IMG/VR virus record: IMGVR_UViG_2541047961_000001
Direction: 5' to 3' (one strand)
Length of the DNA: 10,683 nucleotides
From: a virus
Lineage: Monodnaviria > Loebvirae > Hofneiviricota > Faserviricetes > Tubulavirales > Inoviridae
How positions within the stretch are numbered: position 1 is the first letter of the stretch; each line of letters begins with the position of its first letter. Shown here in pieces: positions 9,612 through 10,406 of this stretch. Under the pieces are notes generated by a model. The model made no database searches, was not told the origin of the DNA, and worked only from the letters and a program-made list of their open reading frames with translations. The translations under genes and the position numbers were made by a program.

Positions 9612-10406
9612 ATGAAGCCAGAAAAAGCTATCGAGATATTAAAAAGACAACGGGAGCAAATCCCAGCAATACAAAATGAACGAAGGAGTACAGGAAATAA
9701 CCCAAGTTTTAACTTATGGCAAAGAAACACTAAGACCGCCATATCAAAAATATTTGGTGAAGAGTCAGATCACAAAAAAGAATTTGGCTCAATTCGATAC
9801 TCTTTAATGGCATTTGTTGGTGATACACCAGATTATGTTTTCGATAACGCATTTTGTAGTGGTTTAGATGAAGCACATTCTCTTCTTACGTCTATGATTG
9901 CTGAGATTGAAGAATATGGAATTGACGGAAATTTCATAGAGACAAAAAATGATCCCGTAGCTCTTGTTGAACTAATTTGCCATCAATTTCATAAGGTTGC
10001 AAGACAGCTACAGCAACGACACGATAATAGACAAACCATTGAAATAAATGACGAATATGACGTTCAGGATTTATTTCATGCTCTTTTGAAGATTCATTTC
10101 GAGGATGTCAGACCAGAAGAATATACGCCAAGCTATGCAGGATCTTCAACACGAGTTGACTTCTTGTTAAAGAATGAAAAAATCATTATCGAGTTAAAGA
10201 AAACGAGAAAAAATCTCAAGCAAAAAGAAGTTGGTGAGCAATTAATTGTTGATATAGCTCATTATCAAACGCATCCTGATTGCGAAACTTTAGTGTGTTT
10301 TGTATATGACCCTGAAGGTAGAATTGCCAATCCAATTGGTGTGGAGAATGACCTTGAGCGTTGTACAAATTCAATTTCGGTAAAAGTAATAATCTCACCA
10401 AAATAA
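9612..10406 (+). CDS. uncharacterised protein with C-terminal PD-(D/E)xK-like nuclease motif
   Basis: 264 aa. GAGGA Shine-Dalgarno 6 nt upstream. Helical N-terminal half; the C-terminal half carries ...TRVDFLL (D183) ... IIIELKK (E194-x-K196), preceded by an acidic helix (NDEYDVQDLFHALL). This matches the hD...(D/E)xK restriction-endonuclease-fold signature. AT-rich (about 30-38% GC). Confidence 0.55.
   Translation: MKPEKAIEILKRQREQIPAIQNERRSTGNNPSFNLWQRNTKTAISKIFGEESDHKKEFGSIRYSLMAFVGDTPDYVFDNAFCSGLDEAHSLLTSMIAEIEEYGIDGNFIETKNDPVALVELICHQFHKVARQLQQRHDNRQTIEINDEYDVQDLFHALLKIHFEDVRPEEYTPSYAGSSTRVDFLLKNEKIIIELKKTRKNLKQKEVGEQLIVDIAHYQTHPDCETLVCFVYDPEGRIANPIGVENDLERCTNSISVKVIISPK

Follow-up and report, generated by a model that had tools for sequence, protein, structure and literature searches.

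A two-domain protein with a predicted PD-(D/E)xK nuclease domain, carried as cargo by a filamentous prophage of Escherichia coli

The gene that concerns us here sits towards one end of a 10,683-nucleotide stretch of inovirus DNA, IMG/VR record IMGVR_UViG_2541047961_000001, which we refer to throughout as the window. It encodes a protein of 264 amino acids, and residues ~115 to 264 of that protein are predicted, almost with certainty on the strength of homology and a structural model, to form a PD-(D/E)xK nuclease fold with an active site at D183, E194 and K196. Our preferred reading of the protein as a whole, which we think probable, is that it is a stand-alone, two-domain effector nuclease, gated by its N-terminal domain, that serves anti-phage (abortive infection) defence and travels as the cargo of an Escherichia coli filamentous prophage. 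The catalytic core is an ordinary claim. The domain is in Pfam, and the identical protein in RefSeq (WP_001527023.1), which matches phrog_29450 over its full length, already goes by the name of PD-(D/E)XK nuclease, its newest label being 'PD-(D/E)XK nuclease domain-containing protein'. What is new lies around the core: the gene has no conserved neighbour, the DUF6953 gene that follows it is not an obligate partner, the family is spread over phyla, prophages and IncX4 plasmids, and in this phage the gene arrived in a low-GC (guanine plus cytosine) cassette that replaces a gene of the related phage CUS-1.

The nuclease domain

The original prediction, made from the letters of the DNA, was of a nuclease catalytic core with a D...ExK triad embedded in hydrophobic, strand-like contexts and preceded by an acidic helix. 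Such a pattern comes cheaply. When the 264-residue protein is shuffled 5000 times with its composition preserved, D-x(8-25)-E-x-K turns up 73% of the time, and 11% of the time if the hydrophobic context is demanded as well. Because the bare pattern is not beyond chance, the case for an active site rests on homology, conservation and structure.

Residues 118 to 264 match the Pfam domain REase_DpnII-MboI (PF18742) from position 2 to position 150 of a 150-position profile, scoring 198.1 bits where the cut-off is 27 (E = 6.9e-59). Beyond this domain, a Pfam scan of the protein (E <= 1) gave only a chance match to CENP-S, and no separate restriction-enzyme family. In PADLOC, residues 97 to 263 match the Aga_Helical-REase model (PDLC02411) over positions 216 to 375 of 378 (E = 1.3e-34), and the restriction-enzyme models of the same collection returned a marginal type IIG match only (E = 0.0063). 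The one relevant match among PDB sequences is to the EcbAgaN chain (23wq), weak when taken alone at E = 0.26. An ungapped alignment of residues 144 to 203 with EcbAgaN 259 to 318 puts D183, E194 and K196 on D298, E309 and K311, and places E148 on the glutamate of 'ENEY', with the acidic motif opposite 'ENEYHVQN'. In EcbAgaN, D298-E309-V310-K311 is the conserved D-EVK motif, which is essential for DNase activity (PMC13535254).

The same residues stand out for their conservation. Among 110 aligned full-length homologues (51 to 85% identical), D183 and K196 are present in every sequence and E194 in 109, while the acidic motif is kept just as strictly (D147, E148, Y149 and D150 in all 110, D153 in 109). 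R167, E169, E170, R181, D214, Y218, H221 and D233 are invariant too. The triad is also intact in every full-length representative of the 50%-identity clusters that has the nuclease domain, the most divergent included; an intact triad is missing solely from P0218 and P0327, both of them truncated fragments.

AlphaFold2, given the homologue alignment, produced a model with a mean predicted local distance difference test score (pLDDT) of 87.7. Its elements run as helix 148-162, short strand 166-167, strand 184-186, strand 191-197, helix 204-219 and strand 226-232, followed at the C-terminal end by helix 241-249 and strand 256-262. This is the alpha-beta-beta-beta-alpha-beta core on whose presence the original prediction had staked itself, with D183 beginning the second core strand and E194 and K196 lying within the third. 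In our view the predicted metal-binding catalytic site consists of D183, E194 and K196, helped by the invariant helix start D147-E148-x-D150.

Re-translation agreed with the original prediction in nearly every detail. GAC at 10158-10160 encodes D183 and GAG at 10191-10193 encodes E194, the RVDFLL and IIIELKK contexts are there, as are E148, D150 and D153, and the acidic helix said to precede the triad is found in the invariant D147-E148-Y149-D150 at the start of helix 148-162. The position given for K196, 10197-10199, was correct and the codon given for it, AAA, was not: AAG stands there, and the AAA at 10200-10202 encodes K197. The broader assertion, that this is the active-site pattern of a restriction-endonuclease fold, is borne out by the PF18742 match, the register with EcbAgaN, conservation and the order of the core elements in the model.

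An N-terminal domain with many effectors

The other half of the protein tells a different part of the story. Residues 1 to 107 match PADLOC's PDC-S35 model over positions 1 to 103 of 264 (E = 3.6e-11). Residues 1 to 112 alone, searched exhaustively with HMMER through 1.84 billion cluster representatives, retrieved 462 proteins; a word-indexed search with the N-terminal domain alone, which the HMMER search superseded, gave just fragments of the same protein. We scanned for C-terminal effectors in the 89 of the 462 that are at least 180 residues long, every one of which matches the N-terminal part of the PDC-S35 model. The commonest effector is a CAP12/Pycsar-type TIR domain (PF10137; PDC-S35 proper), in 42 of the 89, followed by the REase domain described here in 17, TIR_2 in five, TIR in two and Hypoth_Ymh in one. 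A PN-superfamily effector (PDC-M60C-like), a ThsB-like TIR and a phage tail collar domain occur in single cases, and at least 15 of the C-termini match no assigned domain. Searched against the PDB, the profile of the N-terminal domain matched nothing.

That TIR, REase and other effectors are found on one and the same N-terminal domain shows, at the level of sequence, that the helical bundle is a separate, portable module with interchangeable effectors. Such a module, swapped among effectors, is what one typically sees in sensor-effector immune proteins. We would go further only tentatively, with a proposal about which we have more doubt than conviction: that the bundle (of DUF8371/PDC-S35 type) may be a widespread, portable phage-sensing domain which, by clustering on a multimeric phage component, would activate whatever effector is attached to it (TIR NADase, REase-fold DNase, nucleosidase or others), and that a prophage of the CUS-1/YpfPhi family may have captured the DNase version to protect its lysogen against lytic phages.

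Individual proteins illustrate the range of partners. Among P0246, P0309, P0341 and P0256, the N-terminal domain is joined to a ThsB-like TIR, a PN-superfamily (PDC-M60C-like) effector, a phage tail collar domain and, in P0256, an SpbK-type TIR.

Cargo of a filamentous prophage

The window is a piece of E. coli chromosome, in which a complete filamentous prophage of CUS-1/YpfPhi type spans 1265-10683+ (Table 1). The CUS-1 prophage of E. coli UTI89 is 99.4% identical to the window over 1101-9544, and the similarity stops exactly at 9544, the stop codon of a 140-residue open reading frame (ORF). Beyond that point, the UTI89 cargo slot holds a 369-residue ORF, with no Pfam or PADLOC match, and then hipA (locus L130, 9194-10410). 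GC content is 35.5% over 9601-10400, other 400-nucleotide windows ranging from 34 to 49% and mostly from 38 to 48%. Of 5426 complete E. coli genomes, 96 have the phage core (replication gene and repressor, at >= 80% coverage), and 24 of these have the nuclease cassette; the nuclease gene itself is 100% identical in 24 of the 5426.

These four observations (24 genomes against 96, the break at 9544, the low GC and the different gene in UTI89) are why we regard the nuclease and DUF6953 genes as exchangeable cargo, outside the core machinery of the phage. The slot after the 140-residue ORF is a point of cargo exchange in the CUS-1/YpfPhi family. A review describes the repressor-side end of YpfPhi and CUS-1 as having two ORFs without known function that differ between the two phages, and places an RstR-like repressor at the position of the gene at 8576-9022 (PMC4266046). 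The nuclease is probably expressed in lysogens, since its gene lies downstream of the repressor gene in the same orientation.

Table 1. Features of the window discussed in the text
Feature	Position	Strand	Basis or remark
dif site identical to that of E. coli, marking the left junction of the prophage	1252..1279	-	28/28 match; 0 matches in 200 shuffles
Secretin	2151-3395	-	
Zot/pI	3395-4420	-	
pIII-like protein	4724-6436	-	
Coat protein	6501-6734	-	
Single-stranded DNA-binding protein	7023-7340	-	
Replication protein	7352-8404	-	
HTH_3 repressor-like gene	8576-9022	+	Pfam HTH_3 E = 1.6e-09, phrog_3557; also in UTI89
140-residue membrane-protein gene	9122-9544	+	Also in UTI89 CUS-1
Swapped cargo cassette, nuclease and DUF6953	9545..10683, continues beyond window end	+	Low GC, identity break at 9544
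Gene for the 264-residue two-domain protein	9612..10406	+	ORF list and translation
N-terminal helical-bundle domain, residues 1-102	9612..9917	+	Proposed sensor/regulatory/oligomerisation module
Flexible inter-domain linker, residues 103-114	9918..9953	+	Model: pLDDT <50 at 107-111, no secondary structure 103-114
Predicted C-terminal PD-(D/E)xK nuclease domain (REase_DpnII-MboI, PF18742), residues 115-264	9954..10403	+	
Acidic motif D147-E148-Y149-D150 (and D153), start of first core helix	10050..10070	+	Conservation, model
D183 (GAC), predicted catalytic aspartate of the PD motif	10158..10160	+	110/110 homologues; aligns with EcbAgaN D298
E194-L195-K196 (GAG TTA AAG), predicted (D/E)xK motif	10191..10199	+	Aligns with EcbAgaN E309, K311
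DUF6953 gene, 88 residues, winged-helix protein	10417..10683	+	10 nucleotides downstream of the nuclease gene, same cassette

The phage is found in other settings too. In other genomes the same phage occurs in tandem copies adjoining hipA, and an IncFIB/IncHI1B plasmid of Klebsiella pneumoniae (NZ_CP132684.1) carries it as a tandem pair with a 100% identical nuclease cassette (locus L132, 1800-20600). It follows that the phage crosses from genus to genus and enters plasmids. The phage carrying the cassette is known only as a prophage, and a DNA search of the deposited phage collection did not find the gene. As for the host side of the left junction, the flank at 1-971, with alpha/beta hydrolase genes, reaches >= 80% query coverage in only two of the 5426 complete E. 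coli genomes, in two pieces, and most E. coli genomes align only from position 361 on. Overlapping ORFs in two frames at 522-1144 suggest that a hydrolase gene has been disrupted.

A gene without a partner

A small gene set 10 nucleotides behind a nuclease gene invites the thought of a partner. Using tblastn, we looked for DUF6953 in ~110 other loci of nuclease homologues (80 genomes and 32 viral contigs), and found it beside the nuclease only in identical E. coli phage loci. The closest homologue, a stand-alone gene of Pectobacterium that is 85% identical, has no adjoining DUF6953, and neither does a 57% homologue in a tailed prophage of Citrobacter. DUF6953 is also found elsewhere without any nuclease. 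When neighbouring ORFs were clustered across the 80 genome loci, no family recurred, the repeats coming solely from near-identical viral contigs. The nuclease gene is a stand-alone gene with no conserved neighbour, because no neighbour family recurs and DUF6953 is not conserved beside the homologues.

Two candidate partners fell along the way. DUF6953 as an obligate partner was rejected for its absence beside other homologues and its occurrence without a nuclease, and the 140-residue membrane protein was rejected as a gene of the CUS-1 backbone, the ORFs upstream of the Pectobacterium and Citrobacter homologues being unrelated to it. Our literature search found no paper on DUF6953.

Morganella morganii offers a glimpse of the history of the pair. 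There, a 76%-identical DUF6953 directly follows a decayed nuclease remnant (L122/L123, 5600-6267), which keeps 36% identity over residues 133 to 264 and includes a called gene of 52 residues with PF18742. The pairing therefore predates this phage, and DUF6953 can outlast the loss of the nuclease.

A widely travelled family

More than 3600 clusters of homologues, nearly all of ~262 residues, make up the family. They come from Proteobacteria, Bacteroidota, Cyanobacteria, Planctomycetota, Verrucomicrobiota, Acidobacteriota, candidate phyla radiation (CPR) lineages and others, with identities of 43 to 66% in the best segment. Some adjoin toxin-antitoxin and insertion sequence (IS) genes, and contigs of tailed phages or prophages carry homologues near helix-turn-helix (HTH) genes. 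Plasmids are well represented, with 207 records containing a homologue, 161 of them conjugative and IncX4 backbones among them; the Salmonella IncX4 plasmid NC_021841.1, for example, encodes a 263-residue homologue with 44% identity and its catalytic residues intact (locus L131, 4878-5669). This is not the only inovirus with the gene: on a second, unrelated inovirus contig (L091, 6875-7654) a homologue with 58% identity occupies the corresponding place, past the replication gene and encoded on the other strand, with three in-frame stop codons interrupting its N-terminal domain and its nuclease domain intact. Ours is a family widely transferred, across many phyla, prophages and plasmids.

Many of the matched plasmids are E. 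coli and Salmonella plasmids of ~35 kb, and the one we examined is a conjugative IncX4 plasmid. Some plasmid records label the homologue 'malate dehydrogenase', which looks like mis-annotation.

Relatives and analogues

The closest characterised relative of the nuclease domain is found in EcbAgaN, of the long-B Argonaute-associated BPAN system, whose C-terminal PD-(D/E)xK domain is homologous and has its D-E-x-K in register with ours. Its isolated C-terminal nuclease domain is toxic, whereas in the full-length protein the N-terminal domain imposes autoinhibition, until assembly turns the autoinhibited dimer into an active octamer (PMC13535254). The two proteins part company elsewhere. EcbAgaN has 390 residues to the 264 of the window protein, the window has no Argonaute gene and the nuclease gene no conserved neighbour, and the N-terminal domains are unrelated, positions 1 to 215 of the profile going unmatched and the N-terminus of the window protein matching PDC-S35 instead. 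With no Argonaute and a different N-terminus, the 264-residue protein is not a BPAN component.

PDC-S35 shares the N-terminal domain, a length of ~264 residues and the single-gene format. Its C-terminus, however, is a CAP12/Pycsar-type TIR (PF10137), where the window protein has the PF18742 REase domain and no TIR match, and for want of a TIR the 264-residue protein is not PDC-S35. Our literature search found no published test of PDC-S35, and a general search on PDC systems gave nothing specific.

For architecture, the nearest likeness is to SpbK, a TIR NADase of the Bacillus subtilis element ICEBs1 that acts by abortive infection. In SpbK, residues 1-94 form a four-helix bundle, which a linker of 18 residues joins to a TIR domain (113-266), and the bundle docks on the SPbeta portal, YonE, clustering the TIR effector (PMC12847820). 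In our model the window protein is laid out in the same way, with a bundle at 1-102, a linker at 103-114 and an effector at 115-264; both proteins are stand-alone and both are on mobile elements. The effectors differ, a TIR there and a nuclease here, and P0256 provides a link of sorts, joining a window-type N-terminal domain to an SpbK-type TIR. No homology between the N-terminal domains was detected, by sequence or by a profile search of the PDB, and we keep only the architecture, as an analogy.

Type II PD-(D/E)xK restriction enzymes (BstYI, BglII and BamHI, with DpnII and MboI by domain name) come with a cognate methyltransferase, and there is none in the window. They differ further in that the window protein has an extra N-terminal module, common to TIR effectors, and shows no sign of sequence specificity. 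Among filamentous phages, the counterparts of the cassette are the cargo genes of CUS-1 (E. coli K1) and YpfPhi (Yersinia pestis), 'orf1/orf1a' and YPO2271/YPO2272, which occupy the same variable slot on the same dif-integrated backbone. The content differs: a 369-residue protein in UTI89 CUS-1, and two other, unrelated ORFs in YpfPhi (PMC4266046). By these comparisons, the 264-residue protein would work most like the single-chain or adaptor-gated effectors.

How the protein may work, and what else it could be

If the analogies hold, the N-terminal module would keep the nuclease inactive until it met an infection-derived trigger or scaffold. The module would recruit the protein to that trigger, or cluster it there, bringing nuclease domains together, and the clustered domains would switch on non-specific degradation of DNA, which would abort infection by a competing phage. 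As a moron expressed in lysogens, the cassette would protect both lysogen and prophage. Several points weigh against this account. It takes its defence role, its trigger and its activation by clustering from analogy with EcbAgaN and SpbK, and PDC-S35, whose N-terminal domain the protein shares, is a computational PADLOC phage-defence candidate only. N-terminal homology to SpbK went undetected, P0256 matching the spbK profile only at 111-307. The comparison of the model with known structures, which the original prediction had proposed as a check on the nuclease core, also gave no support, a Foldseek search of the PDB yielding no significant match (best E = 0.078, Can2). A protein search of 50,697 deposited phage genomes found no homologue, and a scan for promoters and terminators over 8400-10683 gave no useful signal above shuffled expectation by which to define the transcription unit.

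The alternative with most in its favour is a toxin-antitoxin or addiction module, in which a constitutively active nuclease toxin would be paired with DUF6953, as antitoxin or autorepressor, and would stabilise the prophage, whether integrated or episomal, through the death of cells that shed it. The two genes look the part, being 10 nucleotides apart on the same strand and having arrived together as one cassette, and DUF6953, small and with a winged helix, resembles many antitoxins and regulators. The Morganella locus makes the pairing older than the phage, and accessory toxin-antitoxin systems are already on record in inoviruses (PMC12328805, PMC6813254). We nevertheless consider the module improbable. 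DUF6953 does not stand beside the gene in the ~110 other loci, nor next to the 85% and 57% homologues, and it occurs without any nuclease; a toxin that was always active could not survive on its own across thousands of genomes; and the nuclease's own N-terminal domain, common to TIR effectors, is a better candidate for the off-switch.

The name of the Pfam domain brings to mind an orphan type II restriction endonuclease of DpnII/MboI type, cutting the unmethylated GATC of incoming DNA and relying on the Dam methylase of the host. This we think very unlikely: there is no methyltransferase in the window and no recurring neighbour family in 80 genome loci from many phyla, Pfam offers nothing beyond PF18742 and the chance CENP-S match, the PADLOC type IIG match is marginal (E = 0.0063), and an N-terminal domain that is exchangeable with those of TIR-effector proteins fits a sensor-effector design and not DNA recognition. 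Least credible of all is a nuclease for the phage's own life cycle, engaged in processing the replicative form, in integration or excision at dif, or in degrading host DNA. Its position, at the regulatory and replication end, near the repressor and opposite the replication gene, would suit such a task, but UTI89 CUS-1 does without the gene while being 99.4% identical over the rest of the genome, as do all but 24 of the 96 genomes with the phage core. YpfPhi and CUS-1, moreover, integrate by way of the host XerC/D, their essential modules including no such gene (PMC4266046), and most homologues are outside inoviruses. A gated effector nuclease, carried as cargo for defence against other phages, remains the reading we prefer.

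What the finding means

Accessory toxin-antitoxin systems and superinfection-exclusion genes are already known in inoviruses. If the N-terminal bundle does prove to be a phage-sensing domain, this would be the first defence gene described in the CUS-1/YpfPhi family, and it might explain why the cargo slot next to dif is variable. The family is uncharacterised, and would provide a one-gene model of the way in which a minimal sensor domain controls several kinds of effector. The slot itself is a place of exchange for accessory, possibly defence, genes, in phages linked to virulent E. coli K1 and to pandemic Y. pestis. What deserves experiment, in our view, is the N-terminal domain with its modularity, together with the slot in which the CUS-1 family carries its cargo.

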